Below are positions 2,277-49,450 of a stretch of 64,000 bases of DNA, piece after piece. Every line of letters starts with the position of its first letter. Position 1 is the stretch's first letter. This DNA comes from Escherichia coli (GTDB lineage Bacteria; Pseudomonadota; Gammaproteobacteria; Enterobacterales; Enterobacteriaceae). Where the stretch lies: NCBI RefSeq assembly GCF_048403405.1, contig NZ_CP183129.1; one strand, given 5' to 3'. The position numbers and the translations under genes are program-made. The notes beneath the pieces are model-generated. The model did no database searches. It worked only from the letters and a program-made list of their open reading frames with translations, and had not been told where the DNA came from.

Positions 2277-4178
2277 ATGAAACTACAGAACTCTTTTCGC
2301 GACTATACGGCAGAGTCCGCGCTGTTTGTGCGCCGGGCGCTGGTCGCCTTTTTGGGGATTTTGCTGCTGACCGGCGTGCTTATCGCCAACCTGTATAATC
2401 TGCAAATTGTTCGCTTTACCGACTACCAGACCCGCTCTAATGAAAACCGCATTAAGCTGGTGCCTATCGCGCCCAGCCGCGGCATTATCTACGACCGTAA
2501 CGGTATCCCTCTGGCCCTCAACCGCACTATCTACCAGATAGAAATGATGCCGGAGAAAGTCGATAACGTGCAGCAAACGCTGGACGCTTTGCGCAGCGTG
2601 GTTGATCTGACCGATGACGATATTGCTGCATTCCGAAAAGAGCGCGCACGTTCACACCGTTTCACCTCCATTCCGGTGAAAACTAACCTGACCGAAGTAC
2701 AAGTAGCTCGCTTTGCCGTCAATCAGTACCGTTTTCCGGGTGTTGAAGTTAAAGGCTATAAACGTCGTTACTATCCTTACGGTTCGGCGTTGACCCACGT
2801 CATCGGCTATGTGTCGAAAATCAACGATAAAGACGTCGAACGCCTGAATAATGACGGCAAACTGGCCAACTATGCGGCAACGCATGATATCGGTAAGCTG
2901 GGCATTGAGCGTTACTATGAAGACGTGCTGCACGGTCAGACCGGTTATGAAGAGGTTGAAGTTAACAACCGTGGGCGTGTTATCCGCCAGTTAAAAGAAG
3001 TCCCACCGCAAGCCGGACACGATATTTACCTGACGCTGGATCTCAAACTCCAGCAATATATTGAAACGCTGCTGGCGGGTAGCCGCGCAGCGGTGGTAGT
3101 CACCGATCCGCGTACAGGTGGGGTGCTGGCGCTGGTTTCCACGCCTAGTTATGACCCAAACCTGTTTGTTGACGGTATCTCCAGCAAAGATTATTCCGCC
3201 TTGCTGAACGACCCGAATACACCGCTGGTGAACCGCGCTACACAGGGGGTTTATCCTCCCGCGTCTACAGTTAAACCCTATGTGGCGGTTTCGGCATTGA
3301 GCGCCGGAGTGATCACGCGCAATACGACGCTGTTTGACCCAGGCTGGTGGCAACTGCCAGGTTCGGAAAAACGTTATCGTGACTGGAAAAAATGGGGCCA
3401 CGGGCGTCTGAATGTCACAAGATCGCTGGAAGAATCTGCGGATACCTTCTTCTATCAGGTGGCCTACGATATGGGAATCGATCGCCTCTCCGAATGGATG
3501 GGTAAATTCGGTTATGGTCATTACACCGGTATCGACCTGGCGGAAGAACGTTCCGGCAACATGCCTACCCGCGAATGGAAACAGAAACGCTTTAAAAAAC
3601 CGTGGTATCAGGGTGACACCATTCCGGTTGGTATCGGTCAGGGTTACTGGACAGCGACCCCAATCCAGATGAGTAAGGCACTGATGATCCTGATTAATGA
3701 CGGTATCGTGAAGGTTCCGCATTTGCTGATGAGCACCGCCGAAGACGGCAAACAGGTGCCATGGGTACAACCGCATGAACCGCCCGTCGGCGATATTCAT
3801 TCCGGTTACTGGGAGCTGGCGAAAGACGGTATGTACGGTGTTGCTAACCGCCCTAACGGTACGGCGCATAAATACTTTGCCAGCGCACCGTACAAAATTG
3901 CGGCGAAATCCGGTACCGCTCAGGTCTTCGGTCTGAAAGCGAACGAAACCTATAATGCGCACAAAATTGCCGAGCGTTTACGTGACCACAAACTGATGAC
4001 CGCCTTTGCGCCATACAACAATCCGCAAGTCGCTGTCGCCATGATTCTGGAGAACGGCGGTGCGGGTCCGGCGGTTGGTACGCTGATGCGCCAGATCCTC
4101 GACCACATTATGCTGGGTGATAACAACACCGATCTGCCTGCGGAAAATCCAGCGGTTGCCGCAGCGGAGGACCATTAA
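2277..4178 (+). CDS. mrdA: Penicillin-binding protein 2 (elongasome transpeptidase)
   Basis: 633-aa ORF; N-terminal TM segment plus transpeptidase domain; followed by rodA. Confidence 0.95.
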
Positions 4179-4180
4179 TC

Positions 4181-5293
4181 ATGACGGATAATCCGAATAA
4201 AAAAACATTCTGGGATAAAGTCCATCTCGATCCCACAATGCTGCTGATCTTACTGGCATTGCTGGTTTACAGCGCCCTGGTTATCTGGAGCGCCAGCGGT
4301 CAGGATATTGGCATGATGGAGCGTAAAATCGGCCAAATCGCGATGGGTCTGGTCATCATGGTGGTGATGGCGCAAATTCCTCCACGCGTTTATGAAGGCT
4401 GGGCCCCCTATCTCTATATCATCTGTATTATTTTGCTGGTGGCGGTAGATGCTTTCGGTGCCATCTCTAAAGGCGCTCAACGCTGGCTGGACCTCGGTAT
4501 TGTTCGTTTTCAGCCGTCGGAAATTGCCAAAATAGCCGTACCACTGATGGTTGCGCGCTTTATCAACCGCGACGTTTGCCCGCCATCGTTGAAGAACACA
4601 GGCATCGCGCTAGTGCTGATATTTATGCCCACGCTGCTGGTGGCTGCACAGCCTGACCTGGGGACATCAATCCTCGTTGCGCTTTCCGGTCTGTTTGTAC
4701 TGTTCCTCTCTGGCCTTAGCTGGCGTCTGATTGGCGTCGCAGTAGTGCTGGTAGCGGCGTTCATTCCGATTCTGTGGTTCTTCCTGATGCATGATTACCA
4801 GCGCCAGCGCGTAATGATGCTCCTGGACCCGGAATCAGACCCACTCGGCGCGGGCTATCACATTATTCAGTCTAAAATTGCTATTGGCTCCGGCGGATTA
4901 CGCGGCAAAGGCTGGCTGCATGGCACTCAGTCACAACTTGAATTTCTCCCCGAACGCCATACCGACTTTATCTTCGCGGTACTGGCGGAAGAGCTGGGAT
5001 TAGTGGGCATTTTGATTCTGCTCGCTCTCTACATTCTGCTGATCATGCGCGGGCTGTGGATAGCCGCCAGAGCGCAAACCACCTTTGGTCGCGTCATGGC
5101 TGGCGGCTTAATGCTGATATTATTCGTTTATGTCTTCGTAAATATTGGTATGGTAAGCGGTATTCTGCCGGTTGTAGGGGTTCCGCTCCCACTGGTCAGT
5201 TATGGAGGATCGGCGCTAATTGTGCTGATGGCTGGGTTCGGGATTGTAATGTCAATCCACACCCACAGGAAAATGTTGTCGAAAAGCGTGTAA
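4181..5293 (+). CDS. mrdB: Peptidoglycan glycosyltransferase RodA (SEDS family)
   Basis: 370-aa polytopic membrane ORF immediately after mrdA. Confidence 0.95.
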
Positions 5294-30518: not shown

Positions 30519-31265
30519 ATGTTAAAAAAGATACTTTTACTGGCTCTGCTTCCTGCAATCGCCTTCGCAGAGGAACTTCCTGATCCAGTAAAAGCGATTG
30601 AAAAACAGGGTATTACGATCATCAAAACATTCGATGCTCCCGGAGGAATGAAAGGTTATCTCGGAAAGTATCAGGATATGGGCGTCACCATCTACCTAAC
30701 TCCAGATGGTAAGCACGCTATCTCCGGTTACATGTACAACGAGAAAGGTGAAAACCTGAGTAACACACTTATCGAAAAAGAAATTTACGCACCAGCCGGA
30801 CGCGAAATGTGGCAACGGATGGAACAATCCCACTGGCTCCTCGACGGTAAAAAAGACGCGCCGGTCATTGTCTACGTCTTCGCCGATCCGTTCTGCCCAT
30901 ATTGTAAACAGTTCTGGCAGCAGGCTCGCCCGTGGGTTGATTCTGGCAAAGTGCAATTAAGAACATTGTTGGTTGGCGTTATCAAGCCAGAAAGCCCGGC
31001 GACAGCAGCGGCAATTCTTGCCTCCAAAGATCCCGCAAAAACCTGGCAAGAATATGAAGCCTCTGGTGGCAAGCTTAAGCTAAACGTGCCTGCAAACGTA
31101 AGTACAGAGCAAATGAAAGTGTTAAGCGACAACGAAAAACTCATGGACAATCTGGGGGCAAATGTCACACCAGCTATCTACTACATGAGTAAGGAAAATA
31201 CGCTGCAACAGGCCGTGGGGTTGCCCGATCAGAAAACGCTTAATATCATTATGGGGAATAAATAA
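30519..31265 (+). CDS. dsbG: Periplasmic thiol:disulfide interchange protein DsbG
   Basis: 248 aa from MLKKILLL...; signal peptide; CPYC active site. Confidence 0.9.
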
Positions 31266-31472
31266 AAGATAATTCATGGATGGTTGAAATATATCCCTGT
31301 TTTTCAACCATCCTAAAAAAGCATGAATTGCTCGCTCTGCCCTAAGTGGCTGTGCTATTTTAGAAAAACTTAACTCTGAGTTAAGCAAAAAAACATAATA
31401 CAAATAAATACAACAGCAACATTATTGAACAAATGAATGATTTATAGAAGAGATAATATAACGGAGTATGTT

Positions 31473-32375
31473 ATGGCGAATCTTTATGACCTAAAAAAAT
31501 TTGATCTGAATTTACTGGTCATATTTGAGTGCATTTATCAACACCTCAGCATTAGCAAAGCAGCAGAATCATTATATATAACGCCATCTGCCGTTAGTCA
31601 GTCGTTACAACGTTTACGTGCGCAATTTAATGACCCGTTATTCATTCGCTCAGGGAAAGGTATCGCGCCGACTACGACAGGGTTAAATCTGCATCATCAT
31701 CTTGAGAAAAATCTCAGAGGCATTGAACAAACGATCAATATTGTTAATAAGTCTGAGCTAAAGAAAAATTTTATTATCTACGGCCCTCAGCTTATTTCTT
31801 GTACTAATAACAACATGCTAATCCGCTGTCTTAGACAAGATACTTCAATCGATATAGAATGCCATGACATACTGCTTTCAGCTGAAAATGCCGAAGAACT
31901 GTTGGTTCAACGCAAAACTGACCTGGCAATTACACTACAACCAGTAATTAGCCGCTCTGTCATCTGCATGCCGTTACATACTATTCGCAATTCTCTTATA
32001 TGTAGCAATAAACATCCTCGTATTACCGATACCAGTAACTATGAACAAATTATCGCCGAAGAATTCACCTTGTTGATATCTAAATCAGCAGGGATTGACG
32101 AAATTCAAATGGACATAGATGAACGTTTTATGAACCGTAAAGTTTCATTTCGCAGTTCTTCTTTGTTGACGATAATTAATAGTATTTCTGTTACTGACTT
32201 ATTGGGCATTGTGCCCACCGAACTGTACGATTTACATCGTGATTTTTTGAAGTTACAAGAGATAAAACTGGAACGACCACTTCCTGCGGTTAAACTTTAT
32301 ATTTCCTATAACAAGGCTTCGTTGAACAACCTTGTCTTCTCACGATTCATAGATCGTTTAAATGATAGCTTCTGA
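31473..32375 (+). CDS. ybdO: LysR-family transcriptional regulator YbdO
   Basis: 300 aa from MANLYDLKKFDLNLL...; HTH N-terminus; AT-rich gene. Confidence 0.8.
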   Translation: MANLYDLKKFDLNLLVIFECIYQHLSISKAAESLYITPSAVSQSLQRLRAQFNDPLFIRSGKGIAPTTTGLNLHHHLEKNLRGIEQTINIVNKSELKKNFIIYGPQLISCTNNNMLIRCLRQDTSIDIECHDILLSAENAEELLVQRKTDLAITLQPVISRSVICMPLHTIRNSLICSNKHPRITDTSNYEQIIAEEFTLLISKSAGIDEIQMDIDERFMNRKVSFRSSSLLTIINSISVTDLLGIVPTELYDLHRDFLKLQEIKLERPLPAVKLYISYNKASLNNLVFSRFIDRLNDSF

Positions 32376-32521
32376 TTTATTACCACTGATAAATGTTATA
32401 TTACGCATCAATTGATTCATTGTGTGAATATAAAATAATGTGCTCTATCTTGCTTCGTTTACCCTATAATTAGCGGATTCATCTCACGAGTCACCCCGTA
32501 ACGTTCAGAGAGCGTTTTCAG

Positions 32522-33742
32522 ATGTCTATTTATAAAATCCCGCTTCCACTGAATATTCTGGAAGCTGCAAAAGAACGTATTACCTGGACACTTAACACCC
32601 TACCCCGCGTCTGCGTTTCTTTTTCGGGTGGTAAAGATTCCGGATTAATGCTGCATCTGACCGCCGAACTTGCCCGACAAATGGGCAAAAAAATTTGTGT
32701 TTTATTTATCGACTGGGAAGCTCAGTTCTCTTGCACCATTAACTATATTCAGTCCCTGCGCGAGTTGTACACCGATGTCATCGAAGAGTTTTACTGGGTT
32801 GCGCTCCCGCTTACAACGCAAAATTCCCTATCACAATACCAACCCGAATGGCAGTGCTGGGAACCTGATGTCGAATGGGTACGTCAGCCCCCGCAAGATG
32901 CGATAACCGATCCTGACTTTTTCTCCTTTTACCAGCCTGGCATGACCTTCGAACAATTTGTGCGTGAGTTTGCCGAATGGTTTTCGCAAAAACGTCCGGC
33001 GGCGATGATGATCGGCATCCGTGCGGATGAGTCCTACAACCGTTTTGTCGCCATCGCCAGTTTAAATAAACAACGTTTTGCCGATGATAAGCCCTGGACT
33101 ACTGCCGCACCAGGCGGTCATAGCTGGTACATTTACCCCATCTACGACTGGAAAGTCGCTGATATCTGGACCTGGTATGCAAATCATCAAAGTCTCTGCA
33201 ACCCACTGTATAACCTAATGTATCAGGCAGGCGTTCCTCTGCGTCATATGCGAATTTGCGAACCTTTTGGTCCGGAACAACGGCAAGGATTATGGCTCTA
33301 TCACGTTATCGAACCGGATCGCTGGGCTGCTATGTGCGCACGAGTCAGCGGGGTAAAAAGTGGCGGCATTTACGCCGGACATGACAACCATTTTTATGGT
33401 CATCGGAAAATCCTCAAGCCCGAACATTTAGACTGGCAGGAGTATGCATTATTGCTACTCAACAGCATGCCGGAGAAAACAGCTGAGCATTATCGCAATA
33501 AAATCGCCATTTATTTGCACTGGTATCAGAAAAAAGGCATCGAGGTTCCACAAACCCAGCAAGGGGACATTGGCGCGAAAGATATCCCCTCCTGGCGGCG
33601 AATATGCAAAGTTTTACTCAATAACGATTACTGGTGTCGGGCATTATCATTTAGCCCGACCAAAGCGAAGAACTATCAGCGTTATAACGAACGAATAAAA
33701 GGAAAACGTCAGGAATGGGGGATACTATGCAACAACGATTAA
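32522..33742 (+). CDS. ybdN: PAPS-reductase-like (PP-loop ATP pyrophosphatase) family protein YbdN
   Basis: 406-aa ORF with N-terminal SFSGGKDS PP-loop motif. Confidence 0.85.
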   Translation: MSIYKIPLPLNILEAAKERITWTLNTLPRVCVSFSGGKDSGLMLHLTAELARQMGKKICVLFIDWEAQFSCTINYIQSLRELYTDVIEEFYWVALPLTTQNSLSQYQPEWQCWEPDVEWVRQPPQDAITDPDFFSFYQPGMTFEQFVREFAEWFSQKRPAAMMIGIRADESYNRFVAIASLNKQRFADDKPWTTAAPGGHSWYIYPIYDWKVADIWTWYANHQSLCNPLYNLMYQAGVPLRHMRICEPFGPEQRQGLWLYHVIEPDRWAAMCARVSGVKSGGIYAGHDNHFYGHRKILKPEHLDWQEYALLLLNSMPEKTAEHYRNKIAIYLHWYQKKGIEVPQTQQGDIGAKDIPSWRRICKVLLNNDYWCRALSFSPTKAKNYQRYNERIKGKRQEWGILCNND

Positions 33743-34344
33743 CGCAGGATTTAACCCAATTTCTCGCCAGCTTGCCGGAAGACGATCGCATCAAAGCGAT
33801 TAATGAAATCCGCATGGCGATCCATCAGGTTAGCCCCTTTCGAGAAGAGCCAGTGGATTGCGTTCTGTGGGTTAAAAACAGCCAACTTATGCCTAATGAT
33901 TACAACCCAAACAACGTGGCACCACCCGAAAAAAAACTGCTGAAAAAATCCATTGAAATAGATGGTTTTACCCAACCCATTGTGGTCACGCATACGGATA
34001 AAAATGCCCTGGAAATCGTGGATGGTTTTCACCGCCATGAAATTGGTAAAGGCTCATCATCGTTAAAATTACGCTTAAAAGGTTATTTGCCGGTGACCTG
34101 TCTGGAAGGTACGCGTAATCAACGCATCGCCGCGACTATTCGTCATAACCGCGCTCGTGGACGTCACCAAATCACTGCCATGTCAGAAATCGTCCGTGAA
34201 CTCAGCCAGTTGGGATGGGACGATAATAAAATTGGCAAAGAGCTGGGAATGGACAGCGACGAAGTGCTACGCCTGAAGCAAATTAACGGCCTGCAAGAGT
34301 TGTTTGCCGACCGTCAATATTCCCGCGCCTGGACGGTTAAATAG
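33715..34344 (+). CDS. ybdM: ParB/sulfiredoxin-fold domain protein YbdM
   Basis: 209-aa ORF overlapping ybdN by 28 bp; ParB-like N-terminal region. Confidence 0.85.
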   Translation: MGDTMQQRLTQDLTQFLASLPEDDRIKAINEIRMAIHQVSPFREEPVDCVLWVKNSQLMPNDYNPNNVAPPEKKLLKKSIEIDGFTQPIVVTHTDKNALEIVDGFHRHEIGKGSSSLKLRLKGYLPVTCLEGTRNQRIAATIRHNRARGRHQITAMSEIVRELSQLGWDDNKIGKELGMDSDEVLRLKQINGLQELFADRQYSRAWTVK

Positions 34345-35505
34345 CTAAAGCTGGCGCAGGCGTTCAGCTGCTGCCAGCAACGTCGATTCCTTCTTGGCAA
34401 AACAGAGACGAATCAGTTTATGTGGGAAGGGATCGGCGCAAAACACCGATAGCGGAATCGCCGCTACGCCGTGCTCCTGCGTCAGCCACTGGCAAAACTC
34501 AACGTCATCCAGGGTAGATACGGCGCTGTAATCCACCAGCAAAAAGTATGTACCTTCGCACGGTAAAATCTCCAGCCGGCTTTCATTTAAGGCATTCACC
34601 AGAATATCGCGCTTCTGGCGATAAAAGTCCGGTAACGCAAGATAATGCTCAGGTTCTGCACGTAGCATATCGGCAAGCGCCAGCTGTGCCGGGGTATTCA
34701 CCGAAAAGGTCAGATACTGATGTACCTTGCGAATTTCGGCACTGATGGGCGCTGGCGCAACGCAATAACCCACTTTCCAGCCGGTCATATGATAGGTCTT
34801 GCCAAACGATGACACCGCCACCGCCCGCTCACGCAGCTGCGGATGCGCCTGCACGCTGGCATGGCCCTGTTGTGAAAAGTTGATGTGCTCGTAAACTTCA
34901 TCGCTAATGACAAAAATCTCGTGCCCGGCAATTGCCTGCCACAAAGCGGCGAAATCAGCCTGCTGCCAGACAGTTGCACTGGGGTTATGCGGGGTGTTGA
35001 GGATCACCAGTCGGGTGCGCTCGCTTAACAATGCGGCAAATTCCTGCCAGTCCACGCGAAAATGCGGTGGTTGCAGTGCAATACGTTTCACTATTCCCCC
35101 CGAAAGCGCGATGGCGGGCGCGTAACTGTCATAGCTGGGATCAAAGCAGATCACTTCATCACCATTGCGCACCAATGCGGTAATCGCTGCATATAACGCT
35201 TCCGTCGCCCCTGCCGTTACGGTGATATCACTATCGGCATCCGGTTGATAGCCATACAGACGTTCCGTTTTCTGAGCAATCGCCTCGCGCAAGGCCTGCA
35301 CGCCAGTCATAGGCGCGTATTGGTTTGCCCCCTGGTCAACATGGTACGCCAGCCGCTCCTGCAAATAGCGCGGACCATCAAAATCAGGAAAGCCTTGCGA
35401 AAGGTTAATCGCCTGGTGTTGCTGCGCCAGCGCGCTCATCTGGGTGAAAATAGTGGTGCCAAGTTGTGGAAGTTTGCTTTGTGGAATCAGAGGGTTATTT
35501 GTCAT
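34345..35505 (-). CDS. ybdL: Methionine-oxo-acid aminotransferase (PLP-dependent, class I)
   Basis: 386-aa ORF; aminotransferase class I features. Confidence 0.9.
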   Translation of the reverse strand: MTNNPLIPQSKLPQLGTTIFTQMSALAQQHQAINLSQGFPDFDGPRYLQERLAYHVDQGANQYAPMTGVQALREAIAQKTERLYGYQPDADSDITVTAGATEALYAAITALVRNGDEVICFDPSYDSYAPAIALSGGIVKRIALQPPHFRVDWQEFAALLSERTRLVILNTPHNPSATVWQQADFAALWQAIAGHEIFVISDEVYEHINFSQQGHASVQAHPQLRERAVAVSSFGKTYHMTGWKVGYCVAPAPISAEIRKVHQYLTFSVNTPAQLALADMLRAEPEHYLALPDFYRQKRDILVNALNESRLEILPCEGTYFLLVDYSAVSTLDDVEFCQWLTQEHGVAAIPLSVFCADPFPHKLIRLCFAKKESTLLAAAERLRQL

Positions 35506-35612
35506 TTTTTATTGTGCCTGACGAAGTTGTGTTGAAGGCACTATAACACGATGCTAGCATTTGGCAATCAAGACGTTTAGATGTCTAAATAAAACAATAA
35601 GGACAACACAAC

Positions 35613-37020: not shown

Positions 37021-39126
37021 TTAGTGCGCGCCTTTCGCCTGCGCCACGATCTCTTCGACATTTTCCGGCATCGGCTCATATGGCGTTTCTTTCGCCGTTG
37101 GCTTCGGCTCTTTCAATGCCGCCAGTGCCGTCTTAATCGAGAACAGCGCCAGAACCACCACGACCACCATAAAGAAGATGGTTAACCCGGCATCAAGACG
37201 GTTGTTGAATACCAGTTGCGCCAGCTGTGACTCAGTATACTGCGACGGAATATTGCCGCTGTCGATCATTGCCTGGAACTTATTAGCAATCGCCAGGAAG
37301 CCGACTTTCGCATCCGGGCTAAACGCTTTCTGCCAGCCTGCGGTCAGGGTACAAATCAGCAGCCAGGCCGTTGGTACCAGCGCCACCCAGGCGTAACGTT
37401 GACGTTTCATTTTGAACAGCACCACAGCACAGAGCATCAGCGCCATCCCTGCCAGCATCTGGTTGGCAATACCAAACAGCGGCCACAAGGTGTTAATACC
37501 GCCCAGCGGATCGACCACACCCTGATGGAGGAAGTAGCCCCACGCCAGTACGCACAGCGCCGTTGCCAGCAGGTTAGCAGGCAGTGAATCGGTCCGTTTC
37601 AGGCCCGGAGACACCACGCCCAGCAGATCCTGCAACATAAAGCGCGCAGCACGCGTACCTGCATCCACCGCCGTCAGAATAAACAGTGCTTCAAACAAAA
37701 TGGCGAAGTGATACCAGAACGCCACATCCATCATGCCGCCCAGCGCGCCGTGCAGAATGTAGGCCATCCCCACCGCCAGCGTCGGCGCACCGCCCGCACG
37801 GGAAATGATCGACTGTTCACCCACTTCGCTGGCAATCTGGTTGAGCGTATCTGGTGTAATGCTAAATCCCCAGCTACTCACCACCTGCGCGGCAGAAGCA
37901 ACCACATCCGCCGTACCTGCCGGAGCCAGCACCGCCATCGGGCTGTTCATAGCGAAGTACACACCCGGATCGATGATACAGGCGGAAACCAGCGCCATAA
38001 TCGCCACGAAGGATTCCATCAACATCCCACCGTAGCCGATAAAGCACGCCTGCCCTTCGTTCGCCAGCATCTTCGGTGTAGTGCCGGAAGAGATCAGTGC
38101 ATGGAAGCCAGACACCGCGCCACAGGCGATGGTGATAAACAGGAACGGGAACAGGTTACCGGTCCATACCGGGCCAGTGCCATCGACAAATTTAGTTAGC
38201 GCAGGCATGGTCAGCGTCGGGCGCATAATCAAAATGCCCACCGCCAGACCGACGATAGTCCCGATTTTCAGGAAGGTAGAGAGGTAGTCACGCGGAGCCA
38301 GCAGCAACCACACCGGCAGCACCGCCGCCACAAAACCGTAACCCACCAGCATCCAGGTCAGCTGCACGCCGGTAAAGTCAAAGTACGGTGCCCAGGTCGG
38401 ACTTTCTGCCACCCAGCCGCCAGAGATAATGGCGAAAATCAGGAATACCAGACCGATGACCGACACTTCACCAATACGCCCCGGACGCAGATAGCGCAGG
38501 TAGATCCCCATAAACAGCGCCAGCGGAATGGTGAACGCAACGGTATACGTTCCCCACGGGCTATGAGTCAGGGCTTTCACCACGATCATCGCCAGTACGG
38601 CAAGGATAATGACCATGATCATAAAGCAGGCCACCAGCGCTATCACCCCGGCGGTTGGCCCCATCTCTTCTTTGACCAGCTCACCCAGCGAGCGACCGTC
38701 ACGGCGCGTAGAAACAAACAGCACCATGAAATCCTGCACCGCACCGGCGAGAACCACCCCGGCGAGCAGCCAGATCATCCCCGGCAGGTAGCCCATTTGC
38801 GCTGCCAGCACCGGCCCAACCAGCGGACCTGCTCCGGCAATGGCCGCAAAATGGTGACCGAACAGCACTTTCTTGTCCGTCGGCACATAGTCCAGCCCGT
38901 CGTTATGGCGCACCGCTGGCGTCATACGCGTCGGGTCAACCGCCAGCACATTTTTGGCGATATACAGACCATAAAAACGGTAAGCGATCAGATAGATACA
39001 GACCGACGCCACCACAATCCACAGCGCGTTGATCTGTTCCCCACGATTTAAAGCAATGTATCCCAGAGCAAATGCTCCCATTACAGAGAGCACTGTCCAG
39101 ACGAGGTATTTCCCTGATTTGTTCAT
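37021..39126 (-). CDS. cstA: Carbon starvation protein A (peptide/pyruvate transporter)
   Basis: 701-aa polytopic membrane ORF. Confidence 0.9.
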   Translation of the reverse strand: MNKSGKYLVWTVLSVMGAFALGYIALNRGEQINALWIVVASVCIYLIAYRFYGLYIAKNVLAVDPTRMTPAVRHNDGLDYVPTDKKVLFGHHFAAIAGAGPLVGPVLAAQMGYLPGMIWLLAGVVLAGAVQDFMVLFVSTRRDGRSLGELVKEEMGPTAGVIALVACFMIMVIILAVLAMIVVKALTHSPWGTYTVAFTIPLALFMGIYLRYLRPGRIGEVSVIGLVFLIFAIISGGWVAESPTWAPYFDFTGVQLTWMLVGYGFVAAVLPVWLLLAPRDYLSTFLKIGTIVGLAVGILIMRPTLTMPALTKFVDGTGPVWTGNLFPFLFITIACGAVSGFHALISSGTTPKMLANEGQACFIGYGGMLMESFVAIMALVSACIIDPGVYFAMNSPMAVLAPAGTADVVASAAQVVSSWGFSITPDTLNQIASEVGEQSIISRAGGAPTLAVGMAYILHGALGGMMDVAFWYHFAILFEALFILTAVDAGTRAARFMLQDLLGVVSPGLKRTDSLPANLLATALCVLAWGYFLHQGVVDPLGGINTLWPLFGIANQMLAGMALMLCAVVLFKMKRQRYAWVALVPTAWLLICTLTAGWQKAFSPDAKVGFLAIANKFQAMIDSGNIPSQYTESQLAQLVFNNRLDAGLTIFFMVVVVVLALFSIKTALAALKEPKPTAKETPYEPMPENVEEIVAQAKGAH

Positions 39127-44323: not shown

Positions 44324-45280
44324 GTGAGACTCGCCTCGCTCTACCGCAACGCCCTTCTATTAACAGGACTTTTGCTTTCAGGAATAGTCGCAGTTCAGGC
44401 CGCCGACTGGCCGCGTCAGATTACTGACAGCCGGGGCACTCATACCCTGGAAAGCCAGCCGCAGCGTATTGTTTCCACCAGCGTCACCCTGACTGGCTCA
44501 CTGCTGGCGATTGATGCTCCGGTGATTGCCAGCGGCGCGACCACGCCGAATAACCGCGTCGCGGATGACCAGGGCTTTTTACGCCAGTGGAGCAAGGTGG
44601 CGAAAGAACGCAAACTGCAACGGCTCTATATCGGCGAACCGAGCGCCGAAGCCGTTGCCGCGCAAATGCCGGATTTGATTTTAATTAGCGCAACCGGCGG
44701 GGATTCGGCGCTGGCGCTGTATGATCAGCTTTCCACCATCGCCCCGACATTAATCATCAATTACGACGACAAAAGCTGGCAGGCGCTGTTAACGCAACTT
44801 GGCGAAATTACCGGGCATGAGAAACAAGCGGCAGAGCGGATTGCACAGTTTGATAAGCAACTGGCGGCGGCGAAAGAGCAAATCAAATTACCGCCGCAGC
44901 CGGTCACTGCCATTGTCTATACCGCCGCCGCGCACAGTGCCAATCTCTGGACGCAGGAATCAGCACAAGGACAGATGCTGGAACAACTCGGCTTTACGCT
45001 GGCGAAGTTACCCGCAGGGTTAAACGCCAGCCAAAGCCAGGGCAAACGCCATGACATCATTCAGCTTGGTGGGGAAAATCTGGCTGCAGGGTTAAATGGC
45101 GAGTCACTATTCCTGTTCGCCGGTGATCAGAAAGATGCCGATGCGATTTATGCTAATCCACTGCTCGCGCACCTGCCTGCAGTACAAAACAAGCAAGTTT
45201 ATGCGCTGGGAACCGAGACGTTCCGTCTGGATTACTACAGCGCCATGCAAGTGCTGGAACGACTTAAGGCGCTGTTTTAA
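44324..45280 (+). CDS. fepB: Periplasmic ferric-enterobactin binding protein
   Basis: 318-aa ORF, GTG start, signal peptide. Confidence 0.9.
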
Positions 45281-45283
45281 GCA

Positions 45284-46534
45284 TTAACTGTCGGACGCTG
45301 TCACCTGCGGCGGCGTCTGGCGAAAACGCCGCAACTCCACCAGCACCAGCAACAACAACACGCCGATAATCAACAAACCAAAACCGCTCGCGCTTGCGGA
45401 AGCAACCGGTGTCATCATCGCTCCCAGACCGCCTAACAGCGCCGCACCTATGGCATCGCCCGTCACGTTTTGCGCCGTCCACAAACCGTTAATCCGCCCT
45501 AACATCGCTTCCGGGGTTTGCGTTTGCAGCATTGTATATTGCAGCAACGAACTAACCGCGCTCAGCCAGCCGAACAGCGCCAGACAAACCACGCCTAAAA
45601 TCCACATCGGCATCAAGCCAAACAGCCCAATGGCGAGGAACGATCCCAGCGTGGAGAGCAGCATCAATAACCCTGGTCGCGCGCTATGTGCCAGCTTCCC
45701 GCTGGTTAACGCGCCAATAGCCGCGCCGAGCGGGATCGCCGCATAGAGAAAACCAATCTGTGCCGCCGACATCTGCCAGTTGTCAGCCAGCGCCGGATAC
45801 AGTACCCGCACCGCGCTCGCCATCGTCAATAAACCACCCAGCAGCGCAATCCCTCCCACCAGCGGGCTGGCGAGCAGAAAACGAAATCCTGCCAGTAATG
45901 ATTTCAACGGATGCTCACGCGGCTGCGGTGGCGGTGGCAACGCCGGAAGGCTTAACAACGGTAGCAAGGTAATAAACGTGCCCGCCGCCGCCAGCCCGTA
46001 GTTCCAGGCTACGCCGCCGGTCGCCAGCAATAAACCGCCAATCATAGGCGAAATCACCGACCCCAGACGCACGGTCAACATGGTGATCGCCCCGGCCTGC
46101 ATTAAGTTTTCACGCCCTACCAGTGCAGGTGTCGCCGCCAGTAGCGCCGTAACGCCAAGCGATGCGAAAAAACCATCCCATAAACCGAGTAAATAGATTG
46201 CCAATAGAGATGGCTCCGGCAGCAGTGCATTAAGGCACAGTCCAATGAAGCCAATGCCACAGGTGCCGCGCGCCAGCAAAATCACTTTTTTGCGTTCATA
46301 GCGATCCGCCAGCACACCGCCGACCATCAGGCCAACAAACATCGCGCCGCCGGTCAGCGTCACCGAAAGCCCCACCTGCCAGGTAGAATGCGTCATCATC
46401 TGGATCTGCACCGGTACCGCGACGCCGAGCAAACCCAGAGACACAATTGAGATAAAACGAGCGAGGAATACTGCGCGAAACGCCGGGTGCGTTTTCAACA
46501 GGCTGAGGTTAAGCAGCCAGGATTGTTTATTCAT
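45284..46534 (-). CDS. entS: Enterobactin exporter (MFS)
   Basis: 416-aa 12-TM ORF. Confidence 0.9.
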
Positions 46535-48638: not shown

Positions 48639-49450
48639 CCGAATCAGTAGCCCGTTTGCGTGGCGAACAGTTAACCCTCGGATATGGCAAATATACCGTT
48701 GCGGAAAATCTGACTGTAGAAATTCCTGATGGTCACTTCACGGCAATTATCGGGCCAAATGGCTGCGGTAAATCCACGTTACTGCGTACCTTAAGCCGCC
48801 TGATGACGCCTGCTCACGGGCATGTCTGGCTGGATGGCGAGCACATTCAACATTACGCCAGTAAAGAGGTTGCACGCCGGATTGGCCTGTTGGCGCAAAA
48901 CGCCACAACGCCGGGAGATATCACCGTGCAGGAGCTGGTGGCGCGTGGGCGTTACCCGCATCAACCGCTGTTTACTCGCTGGCGCAAAGAAGATGAAGAA
49001 GCGGTAACGAAAGCGATGCAGGCCACGGGAATCACTCATCTGGCAGATCAAAGCGTGGATACCCTTTCTGGCGGACAACGCCAGCGAGCGTGGATAGCAA
49101 TGGTGCTGGCCCAGGAAACGGCAATTATGCTGCTCGATGAACCAACGACCTGGCTGGATATCAGTCATCAGATTGATCTCCTGGAACTGTTAAGCGAACT
49201 GAACCGCGAGAAAGGCTATACCCTGGCGGCGGTGCTGCACGATCTTAATCAGGCCTGTCGTTACGCCAGCCATTTGATTGCATTGCGGGAAGGGAAAATT
49301 GTTGCTCAGGGAGCGCCGAAGGAGATTGTCACTGCTGAATTGATCGAGCGCATTTATGGTCTGCGCTGCATGATTATTGACGATCCGGTAGCCGGAACTC
49401 CGCTCGTGGTGCCGCTCGGACGAACGGCACCTTCAACTGCCAAGATTTAA
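48635..49450 (+). CDS. fepC: Ferric-enterobactin ABC ATPase FepC
   Basis: 271 aa from MTESVARL...; Walker A GPNGCGKST; longer ORF-track start inside fepG rejected. Confidence 0.9.
   Translation: MTESVARLRGEQLTLGYGKYTVAENLTVEIPDGHFTAIIGPNGCGKSTLLRTLSRLMTPAHGHVWLDGEHIQHYASKEVARRIGLLAQNATTPGDITVQELVARGRYPHQPLFTRWRKEDEEAVTKAMQATGITHLADQSVDTLSGGQRQRAWIAMVLAQETAIMLLDEPTTWLDISHQIDLLELLSELNREKGYTLAAVLHDLNQACRYASHLIALREGKIVAQGAPKEIVTAELIERIYGLRCMIIDDPVAGTPLVVPLGRTAPSTAKI

Follow-up and report, generated by a model that had tools for sequence, protein, structure and literature searches.

Gene organization of the locus

The window, a 64,000-nt stretch of an Escherichia coli genome (contig NZ_CP183129.1), includes a locus with the gene order cstA-ybdD-(hcxA)-ybdL-[ybdM-ybdN-citR]-dsbG-ahpC (Table 1). 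RefSeq names the genes of interest citR (ybdO), ybdN, ybdM (IbrB-like domain-containing protein), ybdL (methionine-oxo-acid transaminase) and hcxA (ybdH). CitR matched the LysR family in Pfam, YbdN matched PAPS_reduct and DUF3440, and YbdL matched Aminotran_1_2 with an E-value of 1.2e-59. The score of YbdM against ParB_N was 24.6 bits, just under the gathering cut-off of 26.3 bits. Defence-system models gave only marginal matches to YbdN and YbdM (DndC, BrxP, a methyltransferase), and a literature search for IbrA/IbrB returned retina papers only. The reading frames of ybdN and ybdM overlapped by 28 nt, and the citR stretch was AT-rich, with a G+C content of 0.35–0.40. The MetJ box AGACGTTTAGATGTCT occurred once in the window, where chance alone would give 0.08 matches; its location beside the promoter-like site of ybdL fits a met-like regulation of this gene.

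The genes ybdM (+ strand) and ybdL (− strand) are neighbours that face each other, which is the arrangement of a convergent excludon pair. Their two stop codons lie 0 nt apart at 34342..34347 (TAG/CTA), as seen both in the sequence and in the list of open reading frames. The + strand runs tgg acg gtt aaa TAG CTA aag ctg gcg cag across the junction. The stop codon of ybdL is TAG, which appears on this strand as its reverse complement CTA at 34345-34347, so that the two stops together form the palindrome TAGCTA. The original prediction that the stops abut was borne out: the coordinates were exact, and in three E. coli genomes the RefSeq/PGAP annotation ends both genes at the same abutting positions. 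The gap was exactly 0 and no base was common to both genes, meaning that the coding sequences do not overlap. The junction is thus real and already annotated.

Table 1. Features at and around the junction of ybdM and ybdL, with positions in the window.
Feature	Coordinates	Strand	Evidence and remarks
citR (ybdO), LysR-type repressor of ybdNM	31473..32375	+	Annotation, Pfam, PMC9068703
ybdN CDS, 406 aa, PAPS_reduct and DUF3440, IbrA-like	32522..33742	+	First gene of the ybdNM operon
ybdM CDS, 209 aa	33715..34344	+	ORF list; ends in AWTVK, stop TAG at 34342-34344; last gene of the ybdNM operon
C-rich, G-poor stretch, C/G 1.6–2.0	34185..34304	−	41–160 nt past the ybdL stop; composition only
Sub-canonical terminator-like element of the ybdL transcript	34339..34378	−	Hairpin GCUGGCAGCAG-CUGAACGC-CUGCGCCAGC (34378..34350, −17 kcal/mol) in the last 10 codons
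ybdL CDS, 386 aa, methionine-oxo-acid transaminase	34345..35505	−	ORF list and RefSeq; ends in ERLRQL before the stop
Strong hairpin on ybdM read-through RNA, antisense to ybdL	34381..34438	+	−27.4 kcal/mol, z = −5.1
ybdL promoter-like site and tandem MetJ box	35540..35586	−	TTGCCA-16-TATAGT with TG; box at 35571-35586

Conservation of the junction

Of 5,426 complete E. coli genomes, 5,408 carried the 1.8-kb region at a coverage of at least 80%, and 5,416 matched, at the same minimum coverage, a 200-nt query with the junction at its centre. When full-length junction matches were sampled evenly down the ranking, each was exactly as long as the query (59/59). The junction sequence of K-12-like genomes was that of the window. 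Positions 33700-35520 were 100% identical to strain 2012C-4221 (NZ_CP027437.1). Outside this interval, indels offset the coordinates of the two genomes, and cstA, intact in the window, was frameshifted in NZ_CP027437.1.

Across genera, we compared 80 genomes at species level, each with a gene for a close YbdL relative, and located YbdM, YbdN and YbdO in them by tblastn. In 46 of the 80 genomes ybdM converged on ybdL, and the gap was exactly 0 in 44 of these 46. The 46 genomes included 11 named genera (Escherichia, Salmonella, Citrobacter, Enterobacter, Klebsiella, Raoultella, Kluyvera, Lelliottia, Superficieibacter, Pseudocitrobacter and Huaxiibacter). The two exceptions were Citrobacter genomes with one common 13-nt insert, from which it follows that the site can change. 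The stop codons themselves varied among the 46 genomes: ybdL ended in TAG (25), TGA (12) or TAA (9), and ybdM in TAA (27) or TAG (19). The identity of YbdM ranged from 59 to 98%, and its C-terminus was WTVK in 45 genomes and WTIK in one. In every one of the 80 genomes, YbdL had 386 residues, the last being L, I or V. Loss of the stop codon would lengthen YbdM by 36 or YbdL by 26 residues.

As a control, the neighbouring convergent pair hcxA/ybdD was measured in the same genomes. Its gaps were 8, 9, 9, 9, 11, 35, 45, 98 (four genomes), 103, 109, 118, 127 and 191 nt, and reached 859 nt in three genomes with inserted genes. The junction of ybdL and ybdM is thus far more stable than that of hcxA and ybdD. 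Next to such labile spacing, it is somewhat striking that the ybdL/ybdM junction is so fixed, and selection could be the reason. This fixity of the 0-nt gap across genera is the only addition that our analysis makes to existing knowledge.

The genomes without ybdM showed what else ybdL can border on. In Kosakonia without the citR-ybdN-ybdM block, ybdL faced dsbG across a 30-nt spacer with a classical hairpin and T-run, and in K. cowanii and P. gergoviae without the block only 4 nt separated ybdL from dsbG. In other genomes lacking it, ybdL converged on a LysR gene (13–14 nt) or on another gene (4-nt overlap). Since the 3' end of ybdL is also tight against other partners, the compaction is not specific to ybdM. 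In three genomes, the stop of ybdL was immediately followed by a leftover piece of the ybdM 3' end, indicating secondary loss. We also considered ybdL as a member of a mobile ybdL-M-N-O block and rejected this, as the backbone was conserved and only citR-ybdN-ybdM was present or absent.

Spacing of convergent gene pairs in E. coli

To place the 0-nt gap among other convergent pairs, convergent coding sequences were read from four annotated 50-kb stretches (approximately 200 kb) of two E. coli genomes, leaving out junctions with pseudogenes and IS elements. The 24 gaps were 100, 53, 40, 120, 0, 9, 3, −4, 149, 80, 249, −29, 34, 152, 59, −4, 146, 106, 0, 419, 154, 183, 205 and −4 nt. Six of the 24 were 0 or negative (5/23 when ybdM/ybdL is set aside), and lplA/yjjJ was a second exact abutment in the sample. 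Four junctions of at most 9 nt occur within the window itself, namely ybdM/ybdL (0), hcxA/ybdD (9), fepB/entS (3) and fepC/fepE (4-nt overlap). A recent preprint gives the total of convergent pairs in E. coli as 704. The stop-to-stop spacing is zero or negative in lplA/yjjJ (0 nt) and in fepC/fepE, robA/gpmB and srsR/scpC (4-nt overlaps) just as in ybdM/ybdL, and nothing substantial sets ybdM/ybdL apart from these other abutting or overlapping pairs. Its abutment is not unusual; it is one more case of a common class.

Termination signals and RNA structure

A consensus terminator scan of 2.3 kb found 2 terminator-like sites against 3.4 expected, none of them at the junction. An Rfam search at the junction gave no match at E ≤ 1, and no entry for ybdL, ybdM or ybdN was found in Term-seq supplements of Adams 2021. 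With no intergenic DNA and no scan match at the junction, a bidirectional intrinsic terminator was not found there. The claim that there is no intergenic space for terminators holds in its literal part, as there is no intergenic DNA, but termination signals may sit inside the partner coding sequence: the candidates are the ybdL hairpin with its tail UUUAGCUAUUU and the C-rich stretch.

The hairpin at 34378..34350 directly precedes the tail UUUAGCUAUUU, which runs across both stops. The U-rich tail exists on the ybdL strand only, the + strand continuing with AACGUCGAUUCC. If this element were an embedded intrinsic terminator, the ybdL transcript would end sharply within a few nucleotides after the stop codon, the overlap of the transcripts would be trivial (less than about 10 nt), and no meaningful antisense RNA would come from the ybdL side. 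Apart from the stability of the hairpin, the classical hairpin and T-run after ybdL in genomes without ybdM speak for this reading, as they suggest that ybdL is normally terminated intrinsically. The element failed the T-run criterion of the scan, however, and in a longer context other pairings were preferred over the hairpin (z = −1.15). Its stem was kept in Escherichia and a few other genera but not in the majority of those that have this junction, because the R-Q codons in the stem vary between genera. A ribosome terminating at the ybdL stop would moreover cover part of the hairpin. The published overlap of the two transcripts in at least 50% of samples (ExcludonFinder, see below) also argues against a sharp end at this position, and we consider an embedded terminator unlikely.

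On the other strand, the RNA past the ybdM stop was strongly structured (z = −4.0 for 34330-34480), with a hairpin at 34381..34438 that was more stable than its counterpart on the opposite strand (−15.9 kcal/mol, z = −2.7). We hypothesized that this hairpin might be a functional element of the ybdM 3' UTR and rejected this, since its pairing was similar with and without ybdM: the outer stem paired at 0.82 in genomes with ybdM and at 0.75 in those without, compared to approximately 0.46 in slid controls. In the paired positions, codon positions 1 and 2 were invariant, and third positions were mostly broken and not compensated, so that no convincing covariation was seen; one stem pair was canonical in Escherichia only. 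Neither compensatory changes nor an Rfam family thus pointed to a conserved structured RNA element at the junction. In all likelihood, the hairpin is a side effect of the conservation of the coding sequence. The folding z-score of the antisense strand was slightly lower in genomes with ybdM (−1.44) than in those without (−0.73; Mann-Whitney p = 0.027, uncorrected for phylogeny), a weak trend towards more antisense structure that would speak against a neutral junction.

Untranslated antisense RNA is a classic Rho substrate. The RNA past each of the two stops is untranslated and antisense to a gene, and the ybdL stop is followed by the C-rich, G-poor stretch, in likeness to antisense transcripts terminated by Rho. 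Rho is therefore a candidate for ending these transcripts, and judged by base composition the stretch at 34185..34304 might serve to load Rho. Termination by Rho of antisense read-through RNA that is not translated was reportedly described by Peters et al. in 2012.

Transcript overlap and expression

The original prediction also held that each transcript must enter the other gene. This is sound, as an mRNA runs past its own stop, and the overlap of the ybdL and ybdM transcripts has already been published for strain MG1655. In the list produced by ExcludonFinder (Nucleic Acids Res. 2025, PMC12288877), ybdL-ybdM is one of 165 convergent pairs with overlapping MG1655 transcripts, the criterion being an overlap of RNA-seq-defined transcripts in at least 50% of 58 samples. 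Table 1 of that study also contains ybdD-hcxA and entS-fepB, both in the window, as well as yjjJ-lplA and scpC-ygfI. Because any 3' UTR counts as overlap at a 0-nt gap, the listing of ybdL-ybdM is near-automatic. In the same study, excludon pairs as a class had higher synteny and less single-cell co-expression, and p19 capture of double-stranded RNA could not validate convergent pairs (PMC12288877).

The ybdNM operon is repressed by CitR, and its transcription in the laboratory is very low, the base means being 36 (ybdN) and 20 (ybdM) reads (PMC9068703). In the citR mutant, the log2 fold change was +5.5 for ybdN and +2.5 for ybdM; ybdL was absent from the main table of differentially expressed genes, an absence that is weak evidence (PMC9068703). 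In a yneJ mutant, ybdL rose together with the met genes (log2 fold change +3.6, i.e. 12-fold; ybdH +2.6). The terms ybdM and ybdN did not occur in two supplementary files of the yneJ study, one of which is the expression table of the mutant; this, too, is weak evidence.

Six contrasts were available for Salmonella SL1344 in the set E-MTAB-9679. The changes in ybdL were 6.20, −3.28, 1.87, 1.61, −4.33 and 4.88, and those for ybdM in the same contrasts were 3.83, −1.88, 1.07, 1.14, −2.76 and 3.02. Accordingly, ybdM tracked ybdL at approximately 0.6-fold with the same sign in all six, in data for which the text of the paper does not state the strandedness. This pattern is the opposite of exclusion and would be expected if ybdL read-through had been counted without regard to strand.

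The original prediction went on to suggest mutual antisense interference between the two transcription units. This goes too far and found no support, as no reciprocal changes were seen in the available expression tables. In its full form, such a reading would make the pair a functional convergent excludon, in which the 0-nt gap is under selection and transcription of ybdL and ybdNM is mutually exclusive. The route would be polymerase collision or RNase III cleavage of an RNA duplex, with ybdL induced when methionine is scarce and ybdNM released from CitR/H-NS. Several observations are consistent with this: the presence of the pair in the MG1655 list, the fixed gap in 44 of 46 genomes beside the labile spacing of hcxA/ybdD, and the class-level synteny and co-expression pattern (PMC12288877). 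In addition, the smaller increase of ybdM than of ybdN in the citR mutant could reflect interference near the 3' end of the operon (PMC9068703). Yet the listing is near-automatic at this spacing and p19 validation was not feasible for convergent pairs, reciprocity was missing from the citR and yneJ mutant tables, and the two genes changed with the same sign throughout the Salmonella contrasts. Furthermore, ybdL was equally tight against unrelated partners in genomes without ybdM, and about a quarter of the sampled convergent pairs had gaps of 0 or less. We therefore doubt that the pair is a functional excludon. The more specific proposal, that the junction has been selected as a cis-acting switch by which induction of ybdL shuts off the IbrAB-like ybdNM by head-on transcription, or the reverse, appears very improbable. 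If true, methionine salvage would thereby be tied to a ParB-like/PAPS-reductase-like pair of unknown function.

Interpretation of the junction

We consider it likely that the junction of ybdM and ybdL is an ordinary, neutral and maximally compact tail-to-tail junction that has become mutationally frozen. Here, the core gene ybdL, a methionine aminotransferase gene with a putative MetJ-box promoter, meets the end of the CitR/H-NS-repressed ybdNM operon, with the citR-ybdN-ybdM block sitting between ybdL and dsbG. The zero spacer after ybdL would have been inherited almost unchanged in the lineage carrying this block. Because both proteins are conserved to the last residue and stop loss would lengthen YbdM by 36 or YbdL by 26 residues, the one site where an insertion would do no harm is the boundary between the stops. 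With both ends pinned in this way, the stability of the junction is explained without selection on the junction itself. The one insertion event in the sample is about what such a tiny mutational target would give, by argument rather than from a fitted model. In this sense, the 0-nt gap kept across genera is an example of a junction becoming mutationally frozen once it is fully compacted.

That the junction is an annotation artefact, one of the frames being no real gene or ending elsewhere, would agree with the sub-threshold ParB_N score and the very weak expression of ybdM, but is virtually impossible, as the stops are set by the sequence and not by gene calling, YbdL has a strong aminotransferase match and a solved structure cited in the literature, and the conservation of both reading frames, with full-length ybdM and an invariant C-terminus in 46 genomes, in effect refutes it.

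For a frozen, compact junction, the lack of a bidirectional intrinsic terminator means that each mRNA ends inside the other gene. The 3' ends would probably be set by the weak hairpin and the U-rich tail straddling the stops in the case of ybdL, by Rho acting on untranslated read-through RNA, or by polymerase collisions. Any antisense effect would be small because ybdNM is nearly silent in laboratory conditions.

Relation to known systems

Convergent excludons (PMC12288877) are neighbours with overlapping transcripts, to which ybdL-ybdM corresponds in arrangement and by its own listing. The difference is that an excludon is defined by mutual exclusion through interference or RNase III, and the expression tables of ybdL and ybdM are without reciprocity. 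A second comparison can be drawn with the overlapping bidirectional terminators of Ju et al. 2019 (SEnd-seq), as far as they are described second-hand in a preprint (bioRxiv 10.1101/2022.10.23.513370). There, as here, convergent genes are without a classical intrinsic terminator and a hairpin-forming sequence is crossed by both polymerases, and polymerase collision is a plausible route to the ends of the ybdL and ybdM transcripts. The elements of Ju et al., in that description, are intergenic and have uniform 3' ends, whereas ybdM and ybdL have no intergenic DNA between them and are both weakly expressed. For convergent pairs, collision-driven termination has been proposed and is less efficient at low expression (bioRxiv 10.1101/2022.10.23.513370).

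The arrangement matters little in itself, since it is annotated and the pair stands in a published list of overlaps, and a regulatory role is without evidence so far. It does have two practical sides. Stop-codon editing or insertion of a cassette at ybdM/ybdL has no neutral spacer to work in. In unstranded RNA-seq, ybdL read-through can be miscounted as ybdM, which would explain the approximately 0.6-fold tracking in Salmonella.

Presence and composition of the citR-ybdNM block

The loci fetched from Enterobacter sp. 10-1, Klebsiella indica and Raoultella terrigena (L027, L056 and L076), all of which carry ybdL, were missing both ybdN and ybdM. Past the ybdL stop codon (about 4160–4320), the same three genomes contained a stretch of 150–214 nt resembling the 3' end of ybdM, and all three retained a LysR-type gene similar to ybdO. 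These genomes have apparently undergone secondary loss of the ybdNM cassette.

The G+C content of the citR (ybdO) region (window 31200–32400) was only 0.35–0.40, compared with about 0.50–0.55 in its surroundings. This low value fits the reported control of the region by H-NS, and suggests that the citR-ybdNM block is of foreign origin. Within the block, ybdN and ybdM overlapped by 28 nt in differing frames (window 33715–33742). A further in-frame ATG for ybdM was located at 33727, and a start at this codon would cut the overlap to 16 nt.

Predicted elements and published data around ybdL

A hairpin within the ybdL coding sequence (see table below) was predicted to fold far more stably from the + (antisense) strand, at −27.4 kcal/mol (z = −5.1), against −15.9 kcal/mol for the sense strand. 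The 14-bp outer stem was perfect only in Escherichia, and the hairpin showed no covariation.

In the divergent region between ybdL and hcxA (ybdH), a tandem MetJ box (AGACGTTTAGATGTCT, window 35571–35586) was predicted, with two mismatches to two consensus boxes. The window held no other such match (0.08 expected by chance), and the box adjoined a promoter-like site of ybdL (35567..35540). The predicted box is consistent with reports that ybdL and ybdH are regulated like the met genes in E. coli and Salmonella.

In published expression data for Salmonella SL1344, the log2 fold change of ybdM was about 0.6 times that of ybdL in all six contrasts (PMC11481890 supplement). In the same table, ybdN was named only as part of the operon label ybdNM, in the entry for ybdM (PMC11481890 supplement). 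An unstranded library in which ybdL read-through was scored as ybdM would be expected to give this pattern. Genomic SELEX with the sigma-28 (RpoF) holoenzyme gave a 5.4-fold peak inside ybdL, between ybdH and ybdM (K-12 map 633930; PMC5493296). Inspection by eye of the sequence near the ybdM/ybdL junction revealed no sigma-28-like promoter.

Other tight convergent junctions

Three further tight convergent junctions were present in the window, two of them in the enterobactin cluster.

Location of the antisense hairpin and of further convergent gene junctions in the window
Feature	Position	Strand	Description
58-nt hairpin	34381–34438	+ (antisense to ybdL)	inside ybdL coding sequence
hcxA/ybdD	hcxA end 36701, ybdD start 36711	hcxA +, ybdD −	convergent, 9-nt gap
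fepB/entS	45280–45284		convergent, enterobactin cluster, 3-nt gap
fepC/fepE	49447–49450		convergent, enterobactin cluster, 4-nt overlap of coding sequences

The hcxA/ybdD junction lies 2.4 kb from that of ybdM and ybdL, and the pair is included in the ExcludonFinder list of MG1655 convergent pairs with overlapping transcripts (PMC12288877). Elsewhere, the hcxA/ybdD gap measured 8–191 nt (other genera), or 859 nt where genes were inserted. Several of the Citrobacter spacers had a REP-like appearance. Stop codons that abut exactly, as in ybdM/ybdL, were also met by chance in the convergent pair lplA/yjjJ, within an annotated 50-kb sample of E. coli CM13 (L087, 33038/33039); this pair is likewise in the excludon list (PMC12288877).

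Comparison with other E. coli records

The cstA gene (window 37021–39126) was an intact open reading frame of 701 amino acids. In the closest genome found (NZ_CP027437.1), it was annotated as frameshifted and was 133 nt shorter, so the window must derive from another strain. The circular E. coli record NZ_CP018965.1 has as its position 1 exactly the base that opens the ybdL stop codon, which leaves the ybdM/ybdL junction divided between the two ends of the record; this start point was probably a choice made in rotating the assembly.
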